Part shown: positions 3,773-15,281 of the stretch, one piece after another | Numbering within the stretch: the stretch's first letter is position 1 | Layout of the letters: each line of letters opens with the position of its first letter | Assembly (NCBI GenBank): GCA_016205145.1 | Contig: JACQJH010000002.1 | Span: 330,001 to 362,000 of the forward strand | DNA length: 32,000 nt | Source of the DNA: Candidatus Iainarchaeum sp. | Lineage (GTDB): Archaea; Iainarchaeota; Iainarchaeia; Iainarchaeales; JACQJH01 | Direction of reading: 5' to 3' | Position numbers and translations under genes: made by a program | The notes under the pieces: generated by a model | What the model was told of the DNA's origin: nothing | What the model saw: only the letters and a program-made list of their open reading frames with translations | Databases searched by the model: none

Positions 3773-3830
3773 CCGGTTTCGTCCGGCTGGTTCGACGACG
3801 GGTACGCCGCTACGCGCCGTACCCATCTGC
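3773..3830 (+). repeat. 58-nt two-hairpin element, copy 1 (copy 2 at 12901-12958)
   Basis: 53/58 nt are identical to 12901-12958 in the same orientation. Hairpins are TCGTC/GACGA and GGGTACG/CGTACCC. It is followed by TTTATTTTTT and lies between convergent genes. Confidence 0.7.
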
Positions 3831-4837: not shown

Positions 4838-6143
4838 TCAAATCAACCTCTTCTGGCCCCTGTGACAGGGCCGCGGCAATCTTTTTGCGTTTTCCGAAAA
4901 CGAACAGCAGTACAAGCAGGGCTGCAAGGATTGCCGCAATGCCGAGCAGAATGCCGTTGTCGAAAGGCGCCGGCGCTTCGGAAATGCCCGCGGAATAAAC
5001 GTCGGCAACGTCTTTTTTGGATTTTTCAGCGTACGCCAATGCGAGATCGTATTTTCCGCTTTTCAGGAAAACCTGGGTTTTCGCCCAGTCATCCTTCAAT
5101 TGCGCCACCCCTGCTTGGTCCGCCCACAAAAACTCGTTTTCTTCTGCCAGGACTATTGCAATGGCGCCTGAAAGCGAGGAAAATTCCGGCCGCGTTTTTT
5201 TCACCAAAGCGTCGTCCCTGCCGTTTATGGCCTTGAGCGCGGAGCTTTTCTTCACCCTGGTTTCAAGCTTCGATGCGAAAAGCAGTGACTTGGAGTCCGC
5301 GTCGTCAAAAGAATCCGAAATCCTCTGCTTCAAAGAAACCGCGATATTTGAAAACGACGGCAGCCTGCGCGTCTCGTCCGGTGCCTGCAAAAGATTGCTT
5401 ATGCTCGTCTTTTCCTCGATTGACAGGCCGGTCGAGGCGACGGCCTGCTTGAGCTTGTCGGCATCATCAAGGTACGCCTGGACCGCGTCATTGAACGCGA
5501 AAAAACCGGAAAACGACGAGTCAAAATTTTCGCGCAATTTGTCAATGGAATTCGTGTCGGGCGATTCGAAGAATTCGCGGCGCCTCTGTTCCGTTTCAAA
5601 AAAGCCGCTGCCCGTCGAGGAAGCCAGGGAAACAAGCGAGTCAAGCCTGCCCGCAAGCCTGCCCGCGTCGGCCTCCACTGCAGGATAGCCTGCCAAAACT
5701 GATTTGGCGGTGAGAATGTCGGATTTCTCGTTCCTGAGCGAATCGGCGAAAGAATCGAAAAACTTGACGTTGATGTCGTCAAAAAGCCAGCCGCTTGACT
5801 GCGCGTCAAAAGACTGCTTTGTCTCAAGGACCGACCTCAAAACGAATGCGGTGCGCAGAAGCTCCCTGCGCAGGAAACCGCTTTCAGGGATTTTCGGATC
5901 CTTTTCATCGGACAACGGAATGAAATCCGAAACCGAGCCGTTCTCCAAAACCGCGGCAACCCAGTAATTGCGCCCCGCGCTTGCAACCGTGGTTTCAGGC
6001 AGTATCTGTGCCTGCTCGCCAGAATCCAGGAGACTCTCCGACCGGACAAAATTCAGCACGTCCTTGGATGAAAGCACGGAAGCCGAGGCGAAAACTGCAA
6101 AGCCCAGGACAAGCAAAAACGCCAATGCAACGCGTGAGCGCAT
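4815..6143 (-). CDS. Secreted, C-terminally anchored hypothetical protein
   Basis: ORF 4815..6161. ATG at 6143 (MRSRVALAFLLVLGFAVFASA) lies about 25-30 nt downstream of a TATA-like box (rc CTTTATTAATAC). C-terminal TM is GILLGIAAILAALLVLLFVF. It overlaps the downstream gene by 23 nt. Confidence 0.6.
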   Translation of the reverse strand: MRSRVALAFLLVLGFAVFASASVLSSKDVLNFVRSESLLDSGEQAQILPETTVASAGRNYWVAAVLENGSVSDFIPLSDEKDPKIPESGFLRRELLRTAFVLRSVLETKQSFDAQSSGWLFDDINVKFFDSFADSLRNEKSDILTAKSVLAGYPAVEADAGRLAGRLDSLVSLASSTGSGFFETEQRRREFFESPDTNSIDKLRENFDSSFSGFFAFNDAVQAYLDDADKLKQAVASTGLSIEEKTSISNLLQAPDETRRLPSFSNIAVSLKQRISDSFDDADSKSLLFASKLETRVKKSSALKAINGRDDALVKKTRPEFSSLSGAIAIVLAEENEFLWADQAGVAQLKDDWAKTQVFLKSGKYDLALAYAEKSKKDVADVYSAGISEAPAPFDNGILLGIAAILAALLVLLFVFGKRKKIAAALSQGPEEVDLNEGNPHY

Positions 6144-6243: not shown

Positions 6244-6568
6244 GGGGTCATGGGGTAATGGCAGCCCGATAGGCTCCAGAGGGCCCTTTTTCTTTCTTGC
6301 GAAGAAAGAAAAAGTGCTCCAGCCCAAAAAGAAAGAAAACTTTTCTTTTATGGTTGGGGTTTTTGTCTTTGGAGCGACGAGTCCGCGATGCGGGCGATGA
6401 CGAGCTACAGGTACTACGAGTTTTGCAGAAGCGAAACGATGACAACAAAAAAAGCGTGATTCGGCCGGCAGAGGGTTCGAGCATTGCGAGGACCCTCAAC
6501 TTCGCACTCGCCGGGCGATGACGGCGCGGGGTGACCTGTAGGTCTGGGTTCGATTCCCAGTGATCCCA
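6244..6568 (+). tRNA. tRNA-Trp (CCA) interrupted by a 254-nt intron at the canonical 37/38 site
   Basis: Exons are 6244-6279 and 6534-6568. Stems are acceptor GGGGTCA/TGATCCC, D GGGT/GCCC and anticodon ATAGG/CCTGT. The anticodon loop is CTCCAG|A and the T arm is CTGGG-TTCGATT-CCCAG. A BHB-like motif forms when CTCC (nt 32-35) pairs with GGGG 6528-6531, flanked by 3-nt bulges AG|A and TG|A. Confidence 0.8.
6280..6533 (+). ncRNA. tRNA-Trp intron carrying box C/D-like guide elements
   Basis: Guide 6370-6375 (TGGAGC) is complementary to tRNA nt 31-36, and guide 6405-6412 (CTACAGGT) to nt 38-45. Each is followed by ACGAG. CGAUGAC boxes lie at 6395, 6437 and 6516. There is a 13-bp perfect hairpin at 6286-6314. 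Confidence 0.5.
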
Positions 6569-6664: not shown

Positions 6665-7225
6665 ATGTCACGGCATCTCGCCAAGCGCGTTGAGGAAATT
6701 TCGAAAGAGTTTGCGCGCAAGAATGAGGTCAAGCTCAGGATGATTGCGAACCGCACATTGAGCCAGGCCGTGCTGTCCAACGACATGATTTTGGCGGAAA
6801 TCGCGCTCATCGCCTATTGTTTGCACAAGCTTTCGGTCAAGGAGCATGTCGTGAAGAACCCTAAATGGAAGATTGCGCGCCAGCAGATTCTTTCAAACCT
6901 TTCCTCCGCGGCGTATGCGGTGAAAGGCGAGGACCTCAGGCCGTTTGTGCGGCAGCTTGACTTCACGGTAACGCGCATTGAGGCCATTGACACCAGGCTC
7001 GGCCATTTTGCGGTGAACCTTTTCGATCGGGCCAGGGTCAAGCTTGCGTCCGATGCCTATTCGCTGGGGCTGTCATTGAGCAGGGCGGCCGAGCTCACGG
7101 GCTGTGACAAGCGCAAATTGCAGGAATACATCGGCATCACGAAAATGCATGACGAGGAAGGCGAAACTTTCGGCATTGGCGAAAGGCTTGACTCGCTTGA
7201 AACTGCATTGGCAGGTGCACAATAA
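6665..7225 (+). CDS. Hypothetical protein with C-terminal HTH-like segment
   Basis: ORF of 186 aa with its own TATA-like box. LSLSRAAELTGCDKRKLQEYIG resembles a helix-turn-helix. Its stop overlaps the next start (TAATG). Confidence 0.55.
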   Translation: MSRHLAKRVEEISKEFARKNEVKLRMIANRTLSQAVLSNDMILAEIALIAYCLHKLSVKEHVVKNPKWKIARQQILSNLSSAAYAVKGEDLRPFVRQLDFTVTRIEAIDTRLGHFAVNLFDRARVKLASDAYSLGLSLSRAAELTGCDKRKLQEYIGITKMHDEEGETFGIGERLDSLETALAGAQ

Positions 7226-7902
7226 TGGCAAAACCGGAAATCGTCTTCGATTCAAGCACAATCATCGCGGTTTCGAACAGCTGCATAATAAACATCCTCG
7301 GCGCGCTCAGAAAAAGCACTGGTGCCGGTTTTGTCATTCCGTCTGGAGTCGAATATGAGACCGTCACAAGGCCGGTTGCAATAAAAAAATTCGAGCTCAA
7401 CGCCGTGCGGATAAGGCGTGCCATCGGCTCCGGCGTCTTCGAGGTCGACCGGCAGAACCTTTCCAGCCTGAACGAAAAAATCGCCGGGCTGGCGAACAAC
7501 TCGTTTTTTGCGGGAAGCAATCCTATTGAGCTCATCCAGCTTGGGGAGATTGAAAGCCTGTCGCTGATCCTTAAAAGGAAGGCGAAGGCGCTTGCCATAG
7601 ACGAAAGGACCGCGAGGATGCTTGTCGAAGACCCGAAAGGCCTGAAGTCCCTGATGGAAAAAAGGCACGGCGTCAGGCTCAGCGCCGACTGGCAGAAACT
7701 CGACGAGCTGCGCGAAATGTTTTCCGGCATAACCATTGTTAGGTCAACCGAGCTTGTGGCAATGGCTTTCAGGCGCGGCCTGTTCCAGCCGGAACTGGAG
7801 CAGTCGCGGCAGGGCCTTGAAGCCGCATTGTTTGCCGTGAAATTCAACGGCTGCGCAGTTACGACGCCGGAAATAGAAAAGTTTGTGGCTGGTGCAAAAT
7901 GA
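7225..7902 (+). CDS. PIN-like domain protein (putative nuclease fold)
   Basis: The N-terminal IVFDSSTIIAV, then GEIESL and LAIDERTAR, give the D...E...D acidic pattern of PIN domains. It is translationally coupled to both neighbours. Confidence 0.45.
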   Translation: MAKPEIVFDSSTIIAVSNSCIINILGALRKSTGAGFVIPSGVEYETVTRPVAIKKFELNAVRIRRAIGSGVFEVDRQNLSSLNEKIAGLANNSFFAGSNPIELIQLGEIESLSLILKRKAKALAIDERTARMLVEDPKGLKSLMEKRHGVRLSADWQKLDELREMFSGITIVRSTELVAMAFRRGLFQPELEQSRQGLEAALFAVKFNGCAVTTPEIEKFVAGAK

Positions 7903-8354
7903 TTTTCGGAAAGGCAAGGAAAGAGGATCTGCAGGAAATCCTGCGGATGGTGGAAAAGGATTTCGCATACACGGGCTTCGACCTGAAAAAGCTTGAAAAG
8001 CGCCTGTCGGATTCAACGCTCACCATGTTCAGGTTGTCCCTCGACAAACGGCTTGCGGGCTTTTCCGAAATAGAGTTTTTCCCGGATGGCTACGCAAGGC
8101 TGAACGCCATAAGCATTGACGAAAAGCTCAGGGGAAAAAACCTTGGAAAACGGCTGCTTGGCCTCACAATCGCCGAACTTAAAAAATCGGATGTTGAAAA
8201 GGTTTTTTTGCTAGTCAAAAGGGAGAATGCCGTGGCAAAAAGCATTTACAGCCGCGTGGGGTTCAGGTTTGCGGGATTCCACGACAGCAAAATAGAAAAT
8301 TCAACCGTGGAGCGCATGGAACTCGAACTCAGCCGGCCCGCGATTGCAAACTAA
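7899..8354 (+). CDS. GNAT-family N-acetyltransferase (RimI/Ard1-like size)
   Basis: Contains acetyl-CoA motif A LRGKNLGKRLLG and ends with YSRVGFRFAG. Length is 151 aa. It has an ATGA overlap with the upstream gene. Confidence 0.75.
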   Translation: MIFGKARKEDLQEILRMVEKDFAYTGFDLKKLEKRLSDSTLTMFRLSLDKRLAGFSEIEFFPDGYARLNAISIDEKLRGKNLGKRLLGLTIAELKKSDVEKVFLLVKRENAVAKSIYSRVGFRFAGFHDSKIENSTVERMELELSRPAIAN

Positions 8355-8420
8355 GCGGCAATAGCAGAACAAGGGATTCTGAAACGCATTTGCCAAAAAA
8401 ATTGCCCAAGCCAAAAGGGG

Positions 8421-9926
8421 TCAATAGCTTTTCGCAAAATACGCCTTTTTTTCCGCGCGCTTTCCGCACACAACGCACTTTCCGCCGGAAGGCTTTTGGC
8501 CGAATGGGACGCAGCGGCTTGACGCGGTTGTTTCCGCCTTGATTTTTTCCTCGCAATCCCTTGACATGCAGAATGGCGCCAGAACCATTTTTTTTGCTTC
8601 AAGCGCCTTCACAAGTTCGGGGTGCGATGACGCTTCGCAGGTGTTTTCCTTCAAAAACCTTTGCGCGTTTTTGAGCAGGCATTCCTGCATTTCAGCAAGC
8701 GCTTTTTCCGCTTCCGCGGCGATGGCGGAGACGCTGACAAACTCTTTTTTGCCCGTGTCGCGCCGGACAATGACCGCCTGCTTTTTTGCCATGTCCTTGG
8801 GGCCGATTTCAATGCGCAAAGGAATCCCCTTCAGCTCCCATTCGTTGAATTTCCATCCCGGCGAATAGCCTTCGCGGTCGTCAAGAACCGGGTTGAGCGA
8901 TGCGAGCTTTTTTTCAAGCTCCTTCGCCGCCGCCAGAACCTTTTCCTTGTCCGTGTCGAAATAAATGGGCACAATGACGCACTTGTTGAACGCAACATTT
9001 GGCGGAAGCACAAGGCCCTTGTCGTCGGAGTGCACCATTATGGTTGCGCCAATCAGCCTTGTTGTGAAGCCCCACGAATTCTGCCAGGCAAAATGGCTTT
9101 CCTTGTCCTTTCCGAGAAATGAAATGCCGAACGCCCTTGCAAAATTCTGCCCGAGATTGTGCGAGGTGCCCATCTGCAACGCCTTCCCGTCAGGCATCAG
9201 CGCCTCGATAGTGAAAGTCTGCTTTGCGCCCGCAAATTTCTCCGACTCGGTTTTTTCGCCGGTAATGACGGGAATTGCAAGCAGTTGCCCGCACAATTCC
9301 CGGTATTCCTCCAAAAACATCAGAGCTTCCTTCACGCACTCTTCCTCTGTTTCGTAGACGCAGTGGCCTTCCTGCCACAGGAATTCCCTTGTGCGCAGGA
9401 AAAGCTTTGTCTGCTTGACCTCCCAGCGCAGAATGTTGCACCACTGGTTGAGGCGCAGGGGCAAATCGCGCCACGAGCGAATCCACTTGGAATATGCGTC
9501 GTACATTATGGTTTCGGACGTCGGCCTGATCGCAACCCTTTCACCCGAGCCTTCCTTTCCCTCGACCCACGCAAGCTCGGGGGCAAAGCCTTCCGCGTGC
9601 TCGGCTTCCTTTGAAAAAAACGATTCCGGAATCAGCAAGGGAAAGTACGCGTTCAAAACGCCTTTTGCCTGGATGACTGCGTTGAATCGGTCCTGAATTT
9701 TCTGCCACACCATGTAAGCGCGCGGCCTCACAATCATGAAGCCGGCTACCGGCGCGTAATCCGCAAGCTCGGCCTTGAGCACGACCTCGTTGTACCAGTC
9801 CGAAAAGTTTTCGGACTTTTTTACGGTCATGCCCTCGGTGTTTTTAGCGTTCTCAGAAGCCTTGCCGCCCGCCATGGCTTTTGCATCGTTGCCGTGGATT
9901 TTTTCCTTTCCAGCCATTCCAATCAC
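8421..9926 (-). CDS. proS: Prolyl-tRNA synthetase, archaeal/eukaryotic type (no INS editing domain)
   Basis: Begins NFSDWYNEVVLKAEL. It has a class II core (FLRTREFLWQEGH) and a C-terminal Zn-type domain ending AYFAKSY. The maximal ORF starts at GTG 9926 (GTGA overlap with proB). ATG 9917, or ATG 9830 preceded by GAGG, are alternatives. Confidence 0.9.
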   Translation of the reverse strand: MIGMAGKEKIHGNDAKAMAGGKASENAKNTEGMTVKKSENFSDWYNEVVLKAELADYAPVAGFMIVRPRAYMVWQKIQDRFNAVIQAKGVLNAYFPLLIPESFFSKEAEHAEGFAPELAWVEGKEGSGERVAIRPTSETIMYDAYSKWIRSWRDLPLRLNQWCNILRWEVKQTKLFLRTREFLWQEGHCVYETEEECVKEALMFLEEYRELCGQLLAIPVITGEKTESEKFAGAKQTFTIEALMPDGKALQMGTSHNLGQNFARAFGISFLGKDKESHFAWQNSWGFTTRLIGATIMVHSDDKGLVLPPNVAFNKCVIVPIYFDTDKEKVLAAAKELEKKLASLNPVLDDREGYSPGWKFNEWELKGIPLRIEIGPKDMAKKQAVIVRRDTGKKEFVSVSAIAAEAEKALAEMQECLLKNAQRFLKENTCEASSHPELVKALEAKKMVLAPFCMSRDCEEKIKAETTASSRCVPFGQKPSGGKCVVCGKRAEKKAYFAKSY

Positions 9927-10720
9927 TTCAGGAAAAGCGTTCCGTTCTGCCTGCCAGAAAAAATTTTTCCAAGCGCGCCGGTTTCGCCTTTCGTAATGAT
10001 TAGGGGAATCCCCTTTTTTAAAACGATTTTCGCGGCCTGCATTTTGGTTTCAAAGCCGCCCCTGCCCAAAGCGGATTTCCCTTTCAGCGATGCCCCGACT
10101 TTTGAAATGTCGGAAACCACTGGAATGATTTTCGCGTCGCCGTTCGTCAAGGGATTCTTGTCATACAGGCCATCCACATTCGTGAAAATTACAAGCAAAT
10201 CAGCTTTCAGGTGCACTGCCACGAGCGCGGACAAAACGTCGTTGTCGGAAAAAGCCTTTTTCGATGCAAGCTCTTCGACAGCCACGGCGTCATTTTCGTT
10301 TACGACCGGCACTACGCCGAGCCTGAGAAGCTCCCCGAAAGTGTTTTTCAGGTTTTTCAAAGCTTTCCGGTTGTCAAAGTTGTGCTGGGTAAGCAGGATC
10401 TGCGCTATTTTAAGCCCCGGCTTTGAAAACGCCTTGCCGAATTCGCGCATCAGGATTTTCTGGCCCACCGCCGCAACCGCCTGCTGCAATGGAACGGGCA
10501 TGGGCTTTCCGTTCAGGCCAAGCTCCTGCGCGCCCAAACCGATTGCGCCGCTTGAAACAATGACGAATTTCCTGCCATTGGCACTCTGCTCCGCAATGGT
10601 CTGCGCAAGGCCCTCCGCAAAAGAAAAATTGAATGAGCCGTTCTCGACCGCAACCTGCGTGCCAAGCTTGAGCACGACAAGCCTTGCGCCCGCAAAATCG
10701 TTAAACTTGCGCACAGTCAT
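9923..10720 (-). CDS. proB: Glutamate 5-kinase (short form, no PUA domain)
   Basis: Has the amino-acid-kinase N-terminus VVLKLGTQV and the VIVSSGAIGLG motif. It has an ATGA overlap with proA. Confidence 0.85.
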   Translation of the reverse strand: MTVRKFNDFAGARLVVLKLGTQVAVENGSFNFSFAEGLAQTIAEQSANGRKFVIVSSGAIGLGAQELGLNGKPMPVPLQQAVAAVGQKILMREFGKAFSKPGLKIAQILLTQHNFDNRKALKNLKNTFGELLRLGVVPVVNENDAVAVEELASKKAFSDNDVLSALVAVHLKADLLVIFTNVDGLYDKNPLTNGDAKIIPVVSDISKVGASLKGKSALGRGGFETKMQAAKIVLKKGIPLIITKGETGALGKIFSGRQNGTLFLK

Positions 10721-11970
10721 TCCCTCACCTGGCCGTGGCCTTCAACTATAAACTTCACAGAAGTCAACTCCTTCAGCGCAAACGGCCCCCTGCAATGCAG
10801 CTTCTGAGTCGAGATGCCCATCTCCGCGCCCAGGCCGAAAACGCCGCCGTCAGTGAAACGCGTGCTTGCGTTGGCGTAAACCGCCGCCGAATCAACGTTG
10901 GCCAGGAATTTGCGGATATTTTTTTCGTCCCCTGAAACAATCGAATCCGAATGGTGCGTGCCATGCGCATTGATGTGCGCAATCGCCTCGTCAACGCTTC
11001 CGACCTGCCTGACGGCAAGAATCAGGTCCAGGAATTCGGTATCGTAATCCTTCGCCTTCGCAGCCTTCACTCCGGCAAGGCCCTTAAGCAACGCCAAAGA
11101 TTTTTTGTCAACGCGCAGTTCAACGCCTTTTTCCAGCAATGCCTTCGCAGCAACGGGCAGGAAAGACCGGGCAATTTTTTCGTGCACAAGCAGTGATTCC
11201 ATGGCGTTGCAGACCGAGGGCCTCTGCGTCTTCGCATTCACGCAAATCCTGACAGCCGAAGCAGTGTCCGCGCTTTCGTCGACGAAAACATGGCATATTC
11301 CGGAACCGGTTTCAATTACGGGCACACGCGAATTTTCGACGACAAAGCTGATGAGCTTTGCTCCGCCACGCGGAATAATCAAATCAACCATGCCGCGCGC
11401 GTCGAACATTTTTTTTACCGCCCCATGCCCGGCCTCGCCGAACAATTGCACGCTGCCGTCAGGCAGGCCGGCTGAAGAGATTGCCTTGCGCATCACTTCA
11501 ACGATTTTCCTGTTCGAATTTATCGTCGAAGACGAGCCGCGCAGAATGACCGCGTTCCCGGATTTCAGGCACAGCACCGCCGCATCAACCGCAACGTTCG
11601 GCCTCGCCTCAAAAATCATGCCAATCACACCCAAAGGCACGCGCACCTTTCTGATGTGCAGGCCGCCTTTCTGCGAGTAATCCTCCAAAACTTCCCCGAC
11701 CGGGTCCGGCAGGACAACGATGTCATTGATTGAATCCGCAATCGCCGCAACCCTCTTTTCGTCCAGAGACAGCCTGTCAACCAGGGAATTCGAATCGCCC
11801 CGCTTTCGCGCAGCCCTGACATCCAGTGAGTTGGCCGCAAGAATCGCCTTTTCATTTTCCCGCAACGCACGCGCAACTGCCTTGAGCGCGCTGTTTTTTT
11901 GTTCCGTTGACGCCTGGGCCAAGGCAAAAGCCGCTTTTCTCGCGGCACGCGCAATTTTTCCGAACGTCAT
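10717..11970 (-). CDS. proA: Gamma-glutamyl phosphate reductase
   Basis: Contains IFEARPNV and the catalytic-Cys context CNAMESLLVH. Length is 417 aa. It has an ATGA overlap with proC. Confidence 0.9.
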   Translation of the reverse strand: MTFGKIARAARKAAFALAQASTEQKNSALKAVARALRENEKAILAANSLDVRAARKRGDSNSLVDRLSLDEKRVAAIADSINDIVVLPDPVGEVLEDYSQKGGLHIRKVRVPLGVIGMIFEARPNVAVDAAVLCLKSGNAVILRGSSSTINSNRKIVEVMRKAISSAGLPDGSVQLFGEAGHGAVKKMFDARGMVDLIIPRGGAKLISFVVENSRVPVIETGSGICHVFVDESADTASAVRICVNAKTQRPSVCNAMESLLVHEKIARSFLPVAAKALLEKGVELRVDKKSLALLKGLAGVKAAKAKDYDTEFLDLILAVRQVGSVDEAIAHINAHGTHHSDSIVSGDEKNIRKFLANVDSAAVYANASTRFTDGGVFGLGAEMGISTQKLHCRGPFALKELTSVKFIVEGHGQVRE

Positions 11971-12764
11971 TCTCCCAGCTCCCTGGAACGCCTGACAGCC
12001 GCAAAAACCGCTTCCCTCAGCTTTTCACGCACGCCCGCATCCTGCAAAACCTTCAATCCGGCCTCGGTCGTTCCGCCCCTGCTTGCAACCATTGCAATCA
12101 AATCACCGGCGGACAGATTCTTTTCAAGCAGGATTCTGCCTGTGCCAAGCATTGTCTGCCCTGCAAGCAGCCGCGCCTCATTCTCGGACAGGCCGGATTC
12201 AACCGCGGCCTCGCAGAACGCCTGCATTGCAAACGCGAAAAAAGCGGGGCCGCTTCCGGACAAAGCCGTGACCGCGTCAATTTTTTCCTCGGCAACCTCG
12301 ACGATTTTCCCGCAGCTGCCGAACAGGAATTCGACAAGCTTCCTGTCTTTCACCGTGGCCTTTCCCCCAAGCGAATAAGCTGCCGCCATCTCCTGCACAA
12401 GGCAGTTCACGTTCGGCATGACGCGCACGACACGCGCACCGGAAAGCCTCGGCTCGATGAACGCAATGCCTTTGCCCGCGCAAATCGAAATGACAAGATG
12501 CTTTCCGGAAACCGCCCCGGAAATTTCATCCAGGACTCCGGCAAGGTTCTGCGGCTTGACCGATAAAACCACGACAGACGATTTTCCTGCAAGCTCAACG
12601 TTCGACGAAACCGCATTGCACTTCACTGCTTTCTTGAACGCGCCAAGCCTTTTCGCGTCCACGTCGCTGGCAAGAATGTCCTTGGCATGGCACCGCTTGC
12701 CGGCAACAAAGCCTTTCGCCAGGGCCTCAGCCATTTTTCCCGCGCCAATGAAACCGATCTTCAT
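11967..12764 (-). CDS. proC: Pyrroline-5-carboxylate reductase
   Basis: Contains the Rossmann motif IGFIGAGKMAEAL and the C-terminal SRGGTTEAGL motif. A TATA-like box (rc AAAAATAAAAG) lies about 26 nt upstream of the ATG. Confidence 0.9.
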   Translation of the reverse strand: MKIGFIGAGKMAEALAKGFVAGKRCHAKDILASDVDAKRLGAFKKAVKCNAVSSNVELAGKSSVVVLSVKPQNLAGVLDEISGAVSGKHLVISICAGKGIAFIEPRLSGARVVRVMPNVNCLVQEMAAAYSLGGKATVKDRKLVEFLFGSCGKIVEVAEEKIDAVTALSGSGPAFFAFAMQAFCEAAVESGLSENEARLLAGQTMLGTGRILLEKNLSAGDLIAMVASRGGTTEAGLKVLQDAGVREKLREAVFAAVRRSRELGE

Positions 12765-12808
12765 CGCACAACACTTTGCATTCCATTGCTTTTATTTTTT
12801 TGCATGCA

Positions 12809-12882
12809 TGGGAGAGAGGAGATTCGAACTCCTGTCGCTGCCACCCCAAGGCAGTATACTGACCAGGCTATACTACTCCCCC
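12809..12882 (-). tRNA. tRNA-Pro (GGG)
   Basis: The reverse complement folds with acceptor GGGGGAG/CTCTCCC, anticodon stem CTGCC/GGCAG, loop TTGGGGT and T arm AGGAG-TTCGAAT-CTCCT. The discriminator is A and no CCA is encoded. Confidence 0.85.
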
Positions 12883-12900
12883 TCGCCGACACGTCCGCAG

Positions 12901-12958
12901 CCGATTTCGTCCGGCTGGTCCGACGACGGGTACACCGCTGCGCGCTGTACCCATCTGC
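12901..12958 (+). repeat. 58-nt two-hairpin element, copy 2
   Basis: Same orientation as 3773-3830. The five differences fall in loops or flank, or form a compensatory pair (G:C at 3806/3818 becomes A:T at 12934/12946). It lies 18 nt upstream of the tRNA-Pro(GGG) 5' end on the minus strand. Confidence 0.7.
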
Positions 12959-13033
12959 GCTGTTAATTTGACTCATCACGCACCCTACAAAAACCCTGCA
13001 CGCGTGGTATCGCAATGCGATACCACAAGGCTC

Positions 13034-13064
13034 CACACGCGCGAGCAGGCGCGTTGGGGCTGCC
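13034..13064 (-). pseudogene. Duplicated fragment of the tRNA-Pro(UGG) 3' end plus its trailer hairpin
   Basis: CACACGCGC-N6-GCGCGTTGGGGCTGCC at 13034-13064 matches 13163-13193 (25/31). Only the 6-nt hairpin loop differs. No complete cloverleaf can be folded around it. Confidence 0.5.
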
Positions 13065-13183
13065 GGCTTCAAACGCAGGGGGCTCCGCCCCCTCGCACGC
13101 CCCTGAAACATTTAATACTGGCCTACTCGGCGTGTCGCATCGGCGGCACGCCTTGGTTTCGGCACACGCGCCCGAAAGCGCGT

Positions 13184-13258
13184 TGGGGCTGCCCGGATTT
13201 GAACCGGGGTCGCCAACTCCCAAAGCTGGTATCCTGGACCAGGCTAGACTACAGCCCC
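13184..13258 (-). tRNA. tRNA-Pro (UGG)
   Basis: The reverse complement folds with acceptor GGGGCTG/CAGCCCC, anticodon stem CCAGC/GTTGG, loop TTTGGGA and T arm CCCGG-TTCAAAT-CCGGG. The discriminator is A. Confidence 0.88.
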
Positions 13259-13393
13259 GAAAAGCGCCCGAATGGCTAAAGCAAGCCGAAAAATCTGATG
13301 GCTGCCAAAAACTCCGAAAATCAGCAAAGGTTTGCGTGCACGACTGGAAGTCGCTCACTTTGGCAGTTCATAAGCAAGCTTTTGCCGGGAAAA

Positions 13394-13403
13394 GTATTTA
13401 AAG
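13394..13403 (+). promoter_or_regulatory. TATA-like box for the DNA ligase gene
   Basis: GTATTTAAAG is centred about 30 nt upstream of ATG 13428. Confidence 0.4.
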
Positions 13404-13427
13404 CTTGGTTTGGGCAATTCATTTGTT

Positions 13428-15281
13428 ATGCGCTTTGAAAAGGCCGCGGAAATGTTTGAAAGGCTGGAGAAGGTTTCCTCGCGCCTCGAAATGACCGCCA
13501 TCCTGGCGGAAACGTTTTCCGAAGCGAAAGCCGAAGACGTGGACAAGATTGTTTACCTTTCACAGGCAAGGCTCGGCCCGGACTATAACACAAGGGAAAT
13601 CGGCCTTGGCGACAGGCTCGTGCAGGAAGCCATAGCAAAGGCAAGCGGCTTTCCCCGGGAAGAAGTGGAAAAGCTTTACAGGGAAAAAGGCGACCTCGGC
13701 CTTGTAGCGGAGCACTGCCTTGCAAAAAAAAGGCAGAGAAGCCTTTTCTCCGAAAAGCTGTCCGTTTCAAAGGTTTTCGAAAACCTGAAACGCATTGCCG
13801 GTTCGGAGGGAAAAGGCAGCCAGGAACTCAAACTCAAGCTGCTCGCGGAATTGTTCAACAGTTCGACTCCGCTTGAAGCCAAATTCATTGCGCGCATTCC
13901 AATCGGAAACCTGCGCCTGGGCACGGGCGAGCCGACGCTCATGGACGCGTTTGCAATCACGTTCATTCCGGAAATAAAAAAGGACAAAAAGCTTCTGGCA
14001 AAATTCGAAGCCGAACTGAAGGAAAAGAAAGAGGAGAAAAGGGACGAGGAACTGGACCGAAAAATAAAGTTTTTCGTGCGCGAAAAAATCGAGGAAAAAT
14101 TCAACGTGCACCCGGACATCGGGAACATCGCCAAAGTTCTGAAAGAGCACGGCCTTGCAGGACTGGAAAAAATCAAAATCACGCCCGGCGTTCCCATCCG
14201 CCCCACCCTGGCGGAACGGCTGCCGAGCGCGGAAGAAATCGTCAAAAAGCTCGGCAGGTGCGCCGTGGAGGGAAAGATTGACGGTTTCCGCTTCCAAGTG
14301 CACAAAGACGCGGATAATGTGACAATTTTTTCGCGTAGCCAGGAAAACATGACGCACATGTTTCCAGAAATCGTCGAAGCCGTGAAAAAGCAGGTCAAGG
14401 CTAAAGAGGCGATTTTCGAGGGCGAGGCCCTTGCATACAACGAGGAAACAGGGGAATACCTTCCGTTCCAGGTCACCATCCAGCGCAAGCGCAAATACGG
14501 TGTCGAGGAAAAGGCGAAAGAGTTTCCTTTGAGATTGTTTGCGTTTGACGTGATGATGGTTGACGGCAAAAACACAATGGAACTTCCATTCATTGAGCGC
14601 CGCAAAAAGCTTGCATCCATAATCGCGAAAGGCGGCACAATCGAACTGACACAAAGCATTGAAACCGATGACGCGGAAAAGATCGAGGCATTCTTCAATC
14701 TGTGCGTGGAAAAGGGGCTTGAAGGAATAATTGCCAAGGACCTGCATGCAAGGTACATTGCGGGCGCGAGAAAGTTTGCGTGGATAAAGCTGAAGCGCTC
14801 CTACAGGGGCGAACTGACGGATTCGATTGATGCCGTGATAATAGGTTATTACAAGGGAAAAGGCAAGAGGACGCAGTTCGGCCTCGGCGCCCTGCTTTCC
14901 GCGGTTTACAACAAGAAGGACGACTGCTTTGAAAGCATTGCGAAAATCGGCACGGGCATGACGGAAGAACAGCTTGTCGAACTGGAAAAAATGCTCAGCA
15001 AACTCAGGGAAAGCAAAAAGCCTGCGCGCGTCAAATCCGGGCTTGAGCCTGACGTCTGGGTTTCGCCGAAAATCGTGATTGAACTCGTCGCCGACGAAAT
15101 AACGAAAAGCCCTGTCCATGAATGCGCGAAAAAGGAGTCCGGCGAAGGCCTTGCCCTGCGGTTTCCGCGCCTGATTTCAATCCGCCTGGACAAGAAACCG
15201 GAGGAAGCAACAACCACCAAGGAAATAGTCGGCTTGTTCGGGCAGCAGAAGCACGTGCAGTTGGATGAAAGGCAGGGCTGA
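13428..15281 (+). CDS. lig: ATP-dependent DNA ligase
   Basis: Contains adenylation motif I EGKIDGFR, then EGIIAKD and WIKLKRSY motifs. ATG 13428 is preferred over TTG 13410 from TATA spacing. Confidence 0.9.
   Translation: MRFEKAAEMFERLEKVSSRLEMTAILAETFSEAKAEDVDKIVYLSQARLGPDYNTREIGLGDRLVQEAIAKASGFPREEVEKLYREKGDLGLVAEHCLAKKRQRSLFSEKLSVSKVFENLKRIAGSEGKGSQELKLKLLAELFNSSTPLEAKFIARIPIGNLRLGTGEPTLMDAFAITFIPEIKKDKKLLAKFEAELKEKKEEKRDEELDRKIKFFVREKIEEKFNVHPDIGNIAKVLKEHGLAGLEKIKITPGVPIRPTLAERLPSAEEIVKKLGRCAVEGKIDGFRFQVHKDADNVTIFSRSQENMTHMFPEIVEAVKKQVKAKEAIFEGEALAYNEETGEYLPFQVTIQRKRKYGVEEKAKEFPLRLFAFDVMMVDGKNTMELPFIERRKKLASIIAKGGTIELTQSIETDDAEKIEAFFNLCVEKGLEGIIAKDLHARYIAGARKFAWIKLKRSYRGELTDSIDAVIIGYYKGKGKRTQFGLGALLSAVYNKKDDCFESIAKIGTGMTEEQLVELEKMLSKLRESKKPARVKSGLEPDVWVSPKIVIELVADEITKSPVHECAKKESGEGLALRFPRLISIRLDKKPEEATTTKEIVGLFGQQKHVQLDERQG

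Follow-up and report, generated by a model that had tools for sequence, protein, structure and literature searches.

The locus described here raises the question of why the genes for making proline, the gene for the enzyme that charges it and two of the tRNAs that accept it should be adjacent on one strand. It lies within a 32,000-nucleotide (nt) stretch of the genome of Candidatus Iainarchaeum sp. (contig JACQJH010000002.1, positions 330,001 to 362,000), which we call the window. Along the minus strand, tRNA-Pro(UGG) is followed by a 301-nt spacer, tRNA-Pro(GGG), proC, proA, proB and proS, the gene for prolyl-tRNA synthetase (ProRS; Table 1). An earlier reading of the letters alone (the original prediction) had suggested that this arrangement supplies amino acid, tRNA and charging enzyme as one coordinated module. 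Our analysis confirmed both the cluster and its conservation. Signals in the sequence give good support to the operon reading; co-regulation with the tRNAs lacks such support. Our explanation, which we consider probable, joins four elements: a leaderless proC-proA-proB-proS operon, tRNA genes that are transcribed separately, an old syntenic frame, and a slot in that frame that has been remodelled by gene loss.

Gene content, junctions and transcription signals

The gene identities and shared orientation named in the original prediction were confirmed by ARAGORN, Rfam and equivalog profiles. All four protein-coding genes scored above the curated equivalog cut-offs, and proS is present as a single copy in the genome. 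The match of ProB to TIGR01027 spans profile positions 3-252 of 363, which is the kinase domain only, without the PUA domain; the protein carries the near-invariant residues of glutamate 5-kinase.

The genome comprises 1.25 Mb in two contigs (C1 and C2) and is 97.8% complete. Its relatives are the Iainarchaeota/Diapherotrites, which belong to the DPANN archaea. A third proline tRNA gene, tRNA-Pro(CGG), which the original prediction had proposed to look for elsewhere, was found at C2:218470-218583, about 124 kb from the cluster, and contains a 38-nt intron. Each of the three canonical proline anticodons is represented by a single gene. CCG makes up 49% of proline codons, and its cognate tRNA is the isoacceptor outside the cluster. 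A chimeric contig was also considered. This can be rejected because four independent assemblies share the gene order: three Logan assemblies from separate runs carry the cluster at 100% identity, and proC-proA-proB-proS is found again, at 91% identity, in a European Nucleotide Archive (ENA) contig obtained from a different sample. The DNA runs SRR12113383-85 also contain the identical sequence of the window cluster.

The proC/proA and proA/proB junctions are ATGA overlaps, as first read, with the Shine-Dalgarno-like motifs GGGAG and GGTGAGGG just upstream. For the proB/proS junction, the original prediction had offered either a GTGA overlap or a short gap, and the short gap appears to be correct. 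ATG 9917, located 5 nt past the proB stop, is our preferred start for proS for two reasons. When start codons were compared with L193 and other relatives (loci of relatives are cited by L numbers and families by f numbers), this ATG and its surroundings were 100% conserved in a 91%-identical relative. Additionally, the N-terminus predicted from it, MAGKEK, resembles the MA[KE][KE]E of relatives. The reading frame is open from GTG 9926 (8421-9926), and a start at this codon is possible but unnecessary; the overlap form is not favoured. A start at ATG 9875 was rejected, as the codon reads GTT in the 91%-identical relative.

The TATA-like box that the original prediction placed upstream of proC, after the tRNA, proved to be well positioned. 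Across 1489 long open reading frames (ORFs) of the genome, TATA-like hexamer centres peak sharply at -29 to -26 from the ATG. Thus, leaderless mRNAs appear to be the norm in this organism, and the proC box stands at exactly the leaderless distance (Table 1). Equivalent boxes occur in relatives. No comparable box was seen before proA, proB or proS. At the far end, a T7 run follows proS. The four genes are contiguous and overlap by ATGA at two junctions, with one TATA box in front of them and one T-run behind.

Based on these signals, we infer that proC, proA, proB and proS are co-transcribed and translationally coupled. The predicted transcription start lies about 27 nt past the TATA box and so practically coincides with the proC ATG (~12764). 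From there the transcript would extend across both ATGA overlaps and the gap of 5 nt between proB and proS, ending at the T7 run. The only ProRS and the enzymes that convert glutamate to proline would then share one mRNA, which would tie proline supply to charging capacity.

Two other scans were made. Bacterial sigma-70 promoters and intrinsic terminators were no commoner than in shuffled sequences, and these models are inapplicable to an archaeon. An Rfam scan of positions 8000-13600 (E<=1) returned the two tRNAs only, with no T-box (RF00230), no riboswitch and no other family.

Table 1. Positions of the cluster, its signals and its flanking features in the window, with the orphan proB loci of relatives
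Feature	Position	Strand	Evidence and remarks
tRNA-Pro(UGG)	13184-13258	minus	ARAGORN; Rfam RF00005, 60.4 bits; intron-less, CCA not encoded
tRNA-Pro(GGG)	12809-12882	minus	ARAGORN; Rfam RF00005, 57.9 bits; intron-less
proC, pyrroline-5-carboxylate reductase, 265 amino acids	11967-12764	minus	TIGR00112, 235 bits (cut-off 197); Pfam P5CR_dimer, F420_oxidored
proA, glutamate-5-semialdehyde dehydrogenase, 417 amino acids	10717-11970	minus	NF001221, 586 bits (cut-off 289); TIGR00407, 512 bits (cut-off 317)
proB, glutamate 5-kinase, 265 amino acids	9923-10720	minus	TIGR01027, 257 bits (cut-off 186)
proS, archaeal-type prolyl-tRNA synthetase, 498 amino acids from ATG 9917	8421-9917	minus	TIGR00408, 548 bits
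TATA-like box AAAAAAATAAAAG	12789-12801	minus	Hexamer centres 28-29 nt before proC ATG; predicted operon promoter
T7 run, oligo-T terminator-like	8395-8401	minus	Sequence; 20 nt past proS stop, facing the convergent GNAT gene
tRNA-Pro(UGG) trailer module	13120-13183	minus	GC hairpin (loop TTTCGG), GAAACCAAGG, second hairpin, CCGAGTA
Degenerate tandem copy of the 3' half of tRNA-Pro(UGG) and trailer hairpins	12995-13097	minus	Period ~125 nt
58-nt two-hairpin leader module of tRNA-Pro(GGG)	12899-12958	minus	blastn of spacer against genome; tRNA flank listing
ATP-dependent DNA ligase, divergent, left anchor of frame	13427-15281	plus	Pfam, TIGR00574; adjoins tRNA-Pro pair in relatives
orf186-orf225-GNAT trio, convergent, right anchor of frame	6665-8354	plus	GNAT by Pfam; synteny in relatives
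Orphan proB loci in relatives	L134:9608-10363; L137:7210-7977; L138:9451-10197; L181:9521-10234; L182:7155-7889; L005:3846-4661		

The syntenic frame and its variable slot

We compared proS neighbourhoods, extending 8 kb to each side, in 60 genomes that were picked solely by flank length and family spread. Fifty-three belong to the same order and seven to other orders of the same class. A co-oriented tRNA-Pro lies no more than 3.2 kb upstream of proS in 32 of the 53 same-order genomes, representing 13 families; about 0.2 would be expected by chance, a figure to be read with the caution that kin are not independent. The tRNA is only 32-131 nt from proS in nine of these 32 genomes. The linkage was found in none of the seven genomes sampled from other orders.

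The linkage is part of a frame that extends across the order. It consists of the DNA ligase gene on the opposite strand, tRNA-Pro(UGG), tRNA-Pro(GGG), a slot, proS, and then GNAT, orf225 and orf186, again on the opposite strand. A tRNA-Trp often lies beyond them. As the unrelated neighbours (DNA ligase, the GNAT trio and tRNA-Trp) are conserved equally well as the proline tRNAs, the tRNA/proS adjacency is most simply explained as inherited synteny. We conclude that the adjacency belongs to an old frame of synteny shared across the order.

The contents of the slot vary. It can hold proC, proA and proB (proCAB), proC and proB, proB alone (L134, L137, L138, L181, L182), a proC-like gene (L147) or nothing. 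Elsewhere it is filled by unrelated genes, which encode GT2 glycosyltransferases, phosphoenolpyruvate (PEP) carboxylase or a Na+/H+ exchanger. The distance from the tRNA to the next gene ranges from 19 nt to >3 kb, and the tRNA is on the opposite strand in three genomes. In relatives, the stretch that separates tRNA-Pro(GGG) from the following gene usually contains an oligo-T run and, after it, a TATA box at -26 to -36. This suggests that the tRNAs are separate units. We propose that the two tRNA-Pro genes of the window would likewise form their own transcription units, flanked by generic leader and trailer repeats.

These results bear directly on the original prediction. Its caveat, that proC has a TATA-like box of its own and that the tRNAs may form a separate unit, is the reading with the better support, given the TATA box at the leaderless distance and the oligo-T and TATA signals of relatives. 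For the same reasons, and because the unrelated neighbours are equally conserved, its proposal of a coordinated module of amino acid, tRNA and enzyme is unsupported; the CCG isoacceptor lies far from the cluster, and tRNA spacing varies. Our model for the slot is that an old proCAB-proS operon occupied it and was most likely remodelled by piecemeal loss during genome reduction. This would have left proCAB, proCB, proB, unrelated genes or nothing in different lineages.

Several features of the frame deserve mention in their own right. The DNA ligase gene has a TATA box, TATTTAAAG, at 13395-13403 on the plus strand, 28 nt before ATG 13427, a layout like that of proC. Its start is most likely ATG 13427 rather than the TTG 13410 of the ORF list, which would make it another leaderless gene. 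This near-palindromic box is also located about 130 nt upstream of tRNA-Pro(UGG), and no canonical box lies nearer to that tRNA. On the other side, an intron-containing tRNA-Trp (window 6244-6568, plus strand) is part of the frame. As tRNA-Trp adjoins orf186 or proS in many relatives (L135, L158-L167, L183, L186, L187), the region appears to be a long-lived, tRNA-rich syntenic block.

Within the slot itself, the PEP carboxylase of family f16 is of the archaeal type (L040/L155:5177-6640). A PEP carboxylase gene also stands divergently beside proC in two Woesearchaeota loci (L197:3657-5105; L201:3462-4937), so that its association with proline genes is recurrent. Last, two types of ProRS, with 55-71% and 35-42% identity to that of the window and both assigned to TIGR00408, occupy the same position in different families (for example L092:11505-12995, L093:14072-15523, L094:5757-7265, L146, L175-L192). 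This suggests that the synthetase gene was replaced in place in some families of the order.

Origin of the proline genes and transcription of the tRNAs

The distribution of the pathway is patchy. Across the phylum, 24 of 215 genomes contain proA, and the count is 5 when only the 58 high-quality genomes are considered. The order proC-proA-proB-proS occurs in seven families (f1, which includes the window, f5, f19, f20, f25, f26 and f28), and an eighth family, f6, has proC-proB-proA-proS; the adjacency is conserved in relatives, which supports the original prediction in this respect. In f23, proC-proB-proA lies apart from proS. The gap from proB to proS measures -26 to +31 nt in ten other lineages. 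Outside the phylum, proCAB-proS was found in one Woesearchaeote, and proC-proA-proB without proS at three other Woesearchaeota/Nanoarchaeota loci; ProA occurs in only 4 of the 301 genomes of the class that holds those loci. Sixteen Thermoproteota loci have proB-proA, with neither proS nor proC alongside.

The ProA tree contains two deep clades. One is DPANN-wide and includes f23, f6, Woesearchaeota and Nanoarchaeota. In the second, the type-A sequences form an unresolved grade, accompanied by two clades from Thermoproteota and one from bacteria. Monophyly of type-A ProA was not rejected (approximately unbiased test, p-AU 0.10). The best named matches to ProA beyond DPANN are from Acidobacteriota and Alphaproteobacteria, with 56-57% identity, and are as similar as ProA from other Iainarchaeota. 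In the tree the sampled bacterial ProA, a narrow sample, form one separate clade, which does not favour a recent bacterial origin of proA. ProB also falls into two lineages. A PUA-less lineage specific to Iainarchaeota comprises the window, L099 and the orphan proB genes described below, while L091, L093, L100 and L101 carry a PUA-bearing ProB of the other lineage. The 120 best matches to each ProA clade and to the orphan ProB included no names from CPR (Patescibacteria), which gives no indication of descent shared with those bacteria.

In families f18, f20 and f11, an orphan PUA-less proB lies directly upstream of proS (Table 1). Neither proA nor proC was found in these genomes, which are 81-90% complete. 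Of the 280 positions at which pathway ProBs hardly vary, the orphan proteins keep 271, and their ratio of nonsynonymous to synonymous substitution (dN/dS) of 0.1-0.2 indicates purifying selection. These two properties rule out that orphan proB is a decaying relic. ArgC was considered as a universal substitute for ProA and was rejected because argC is present in only two of five orphan-proB genomes. At L141, proC, proB and proS occur together with no proA nearby. Near position 5180 of this locus (plus strand), in the place of the tRNA-Pro(GGG) of relatives, ARAGORN also reports a tRNA whose anticodon has four bases (cggg); it may reflect a mis-modelled intron or an unusual anticodon loop.

Some of these observations weigh against our explanation. 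The type-A ProA sequences form a grade in the tree, which leaves a single origin followed by loss unproven. Both ProA clades are linked to proS, and the clusters are mosaic in carrying either PUA-less or PUA-bearing ProB. The proB-only state is under purifying selection and is not simple decay, so it could represent an early stage of stepwise assembly. On the side of transcription, the 44 nt between tRNA-Pro(GGG) and the proC ATG contain no oligo-T run in the window, and some read-through from the tRNA into proC may therefore occur. Additionally, an internal promoter for proS may lie inside proB.

The strongest alternative is that the locus was assembled stepwise, with a PUA-less glutamate 5-kinase fixed beside proS first and with proA and proC recruited later in some lineages. 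The selected orphan genes in three families, the lack of proA and proC in their genomes, the shared PUA-less lineage of orphan and window ProB, and the mosaic of ProB types would all fit this account. However, it requires independent insertion of proC-proA in the same order and place in seven families, which is less parsimonious than loss. Nor was type-A monophyly rejected, and proC-proA-proB is also the operon order in Woesearchaeota/Nanoarchaeota that lack proS alongside. DPANN genomes are generally reductive, which again points to loss. We therefore regard stepwise assembly as possible, although not probable.

A related suggestion is that the conserved functional core is not the pathway but the pair of PUA-less glutamate 5-kinase and ProRS. 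We offer this only tentatively. If it were true, the function of the kinase would be linked to ProRS and would extend beyond canonical proline synthesis. The kinase might put gamma-glutamyl phosphate to some other use, or it might sense proline and thereby adjust charging. On this view, the proC-proA-proB-proS operon behind tRNA-Pro would represent one elaborated form of the kinase-ProRS pair.

The second alternative concerns the tRNAs and the spacer between them. The original prediction called this spacer structured, and its minimum free energy of -149.5 kcal/mol is indeed lower than that of shuffled sequences (-130.8 +/- 5.3 kcal/mol; z = -3.5). We found that the spacer is an assembly of the genome's generic tRNA leader and trailer repeat modules, none of which has an Rfam match. 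Behind tRNA-Pro(UGG) is one copy of a ~65-nt two-hairpin repeat, which consists of a GC hairpin whose loop is TTTCG(T/G), then GAAACYAAGG, another hairpin and CCGAGTA. The core of this repeat has 49 matches in the genome (for example C1:486187, C1:606494 and C2:218604). Sixteen of these are on the strand of a tRNA gene and 18-118 nt behind it; the other 33 are located elsewhere. The stems of the second hairpin are variable, with many compensatory changes. This repeat may have a role in 3' processing or in termination; alternatively, it may be small and mobile.

The middle of the spacer holds the degenerate tandem copy. Positions 13222-13122 align locally with 13097-12995, with an identical GGCAGCCCCAACGCGC core. 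The copy might have arisen when part of the tRNA was duplicated and then decayed, or it might be an att-like scar of old date. Extra tRNA-Pro copies are found in the relatives L095, L138, L151 and L163. The leader module of tRNA-Pro(GGG) belongs to a 58-nt family that also precedes tRNA-His, Ala, Gly and Ser genes and that, reverse-complemented, forms the trailer of tRNA-Val(CAC), Ile(UAU) and Thr(CGU). A further copy of this two-hairpin element is located at window 3773-3830.

With this structured leader module, and with no obvious TATA box within 70 nt upstream of tRNA-Pro(GGG), one could suppose that a single primary transcript runs from tRNA-Pro(UGG) to proS, that RNase P and RNase Z release the mRNA from it, and that all the genes are co-regulated. 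The common orientation of the elements, the short window interval that lacks oligo-T and the order-wide linkage of tRNA-Pro to proS are consistent with such a super-operon. However, proC has its own box at the leaderless distance, relatives carry oligo-T and TATA signals at this very point, and the interval is expanded, filled with unrelated genes or preceded by an inverted tRNA in other genomes. Moreover, the isoacceptor that reads nearly half of the proline codons is encoded far away, and unrelated neighbours are conserved equally well. We consider a super-operon unlikely.

Finally, it is very improbable that the tRNAs, pathway and synthetase form a mobile island that integrated at a tRNA-Pro gene in the manner of pylTSBCD: the patchy proA, the duplicated tRNA 3' half, the similar cluster in one Woesearchaeote and the closeness of bacterial ProA could be read in this way, but Pfam and profile scans detected neither an integrase nor a transposase, whether within the cluster or among the genes that flank it; the GC content of 0.54-0.56 across 9-13 kb shows no compositional break from the rest of the window (0.50-0.56; ~0.53 overall); no direct repeats of the tRNA 3' part bound the genes, as the sole such repeat is found between the two tRNAs, 125 nt away from the sequence that it copies; the tRNAs and proS form a fixed frame also in genomes that lack the pathway; proS is the sole housekeeping copy; the Woesearchaeote ProA falls in the other ProA clade; and the bacterial clade does not enclose the archaeal sequences. 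The absence of an integrase, a compositional break and bounding repeats makes a recently integrated island unlikely in particular. Our preferred explanation thus remains a leaderless operon within an old frame.

Comparison with known systems and implications

The proBA and proBA-proC operons, such as proBA of E. coli and proB-proA of Thermoproteota, encode the same three glutamate-to-proline enzymes in contiguous and translationally coupled genes. The cluster described here differs from them in its proC-proA-proB order, which is the DPANN order, in having the housekeeping gene proS within 5 nt and in its PUA-less ProB.

We know of only one well-known archaeal cluster, pylTSBCD, in which a tRNA, its synthetase and three amino-acid enzymes stand side by side. 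In Methanosarcinales it brings together tRNA-Pyl, the pyrrolysyl-tRNA synthetase PylRS and three pyrrolysine biosynthesis genes (PMC2933860). That cluster is transferable and self-sufficient, and serves the 22nd amino acid through a dedicated tRNA/synthetase pair. In the proline cluster, by contrast, both the tRNAs and ProRS are canonical and essential and keep a fixed position. It is the biosynthetic genes alone that are gained or lost, and transcription of the tRNAs appears to be separate. Inheritance as a single unit, as in pyl, is contradicted by the presence of the frame without the pathway, by the varying slot and by the mosaic ProA and ProB lineages. There is no dedicated pair either, as the genome has a single proS and one gene per proline anticodon.

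The kind of coupling that the original prediction had in mind, between proline synthesis and tRNA-Pro charging, is provided by a T-box in bacteria. According to the passage of PMC9245794 that cites Brill et al. (2011), proBA and proI of Bacillus subtilis are under T-box control by uncharged tRNA-Pro. The T-box is a bacterial riboswitch that acts in trans through tRNA binding, whereas our scan found none at the proline cluster. Because the mRNA is predicted to be leaderless, there would be no room for a leader switch. A synthetase gene also shares an operon with a synthesis gene for its amino acid in the gltX-cysE-cysS operon of Bacillus subtilis. That operon is bacterial and T-box regulated, contains one biosynthetic gene and has no adjacent cognate tRNA; here the full pathway is present.

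To our knowledge, DPANN archaea are usually described as being without amino-acid synthesis. A survey of Woesearchaeota reports proline genes in some subgroups, and not this arrangement (PMC8421398). We found no description of a proCAB-proS operon in the literature on Iainarchaeota/Diapherotrites, proline biosynthesis or prolyl-tRNA synthetase. Nor did the literature searched contain a precedent for a housekeeping aminoacyl-tRNA synthetase appended to the complete pathway of its own canonical amino acid. As the module of tRNA, amino acid and enzyme is unsupported, we see the result as a moderate one in comparative genomics and not as a new mechanism.

Within these bounds, a near-complete 1.25-Mb DPANN genome keeps a full proline pathway joined to its only ProRS gene. 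The selected orphan pairs of glutamate 5-kinase and ProRS pose a concrete biochemical question. The slot states CAB, CB, B and nothing form an unusually clear natural series for the dismantling or building of an operon under genome reduction, and the state of the slot may serve as a marker of proline autonomy versus host dependence.

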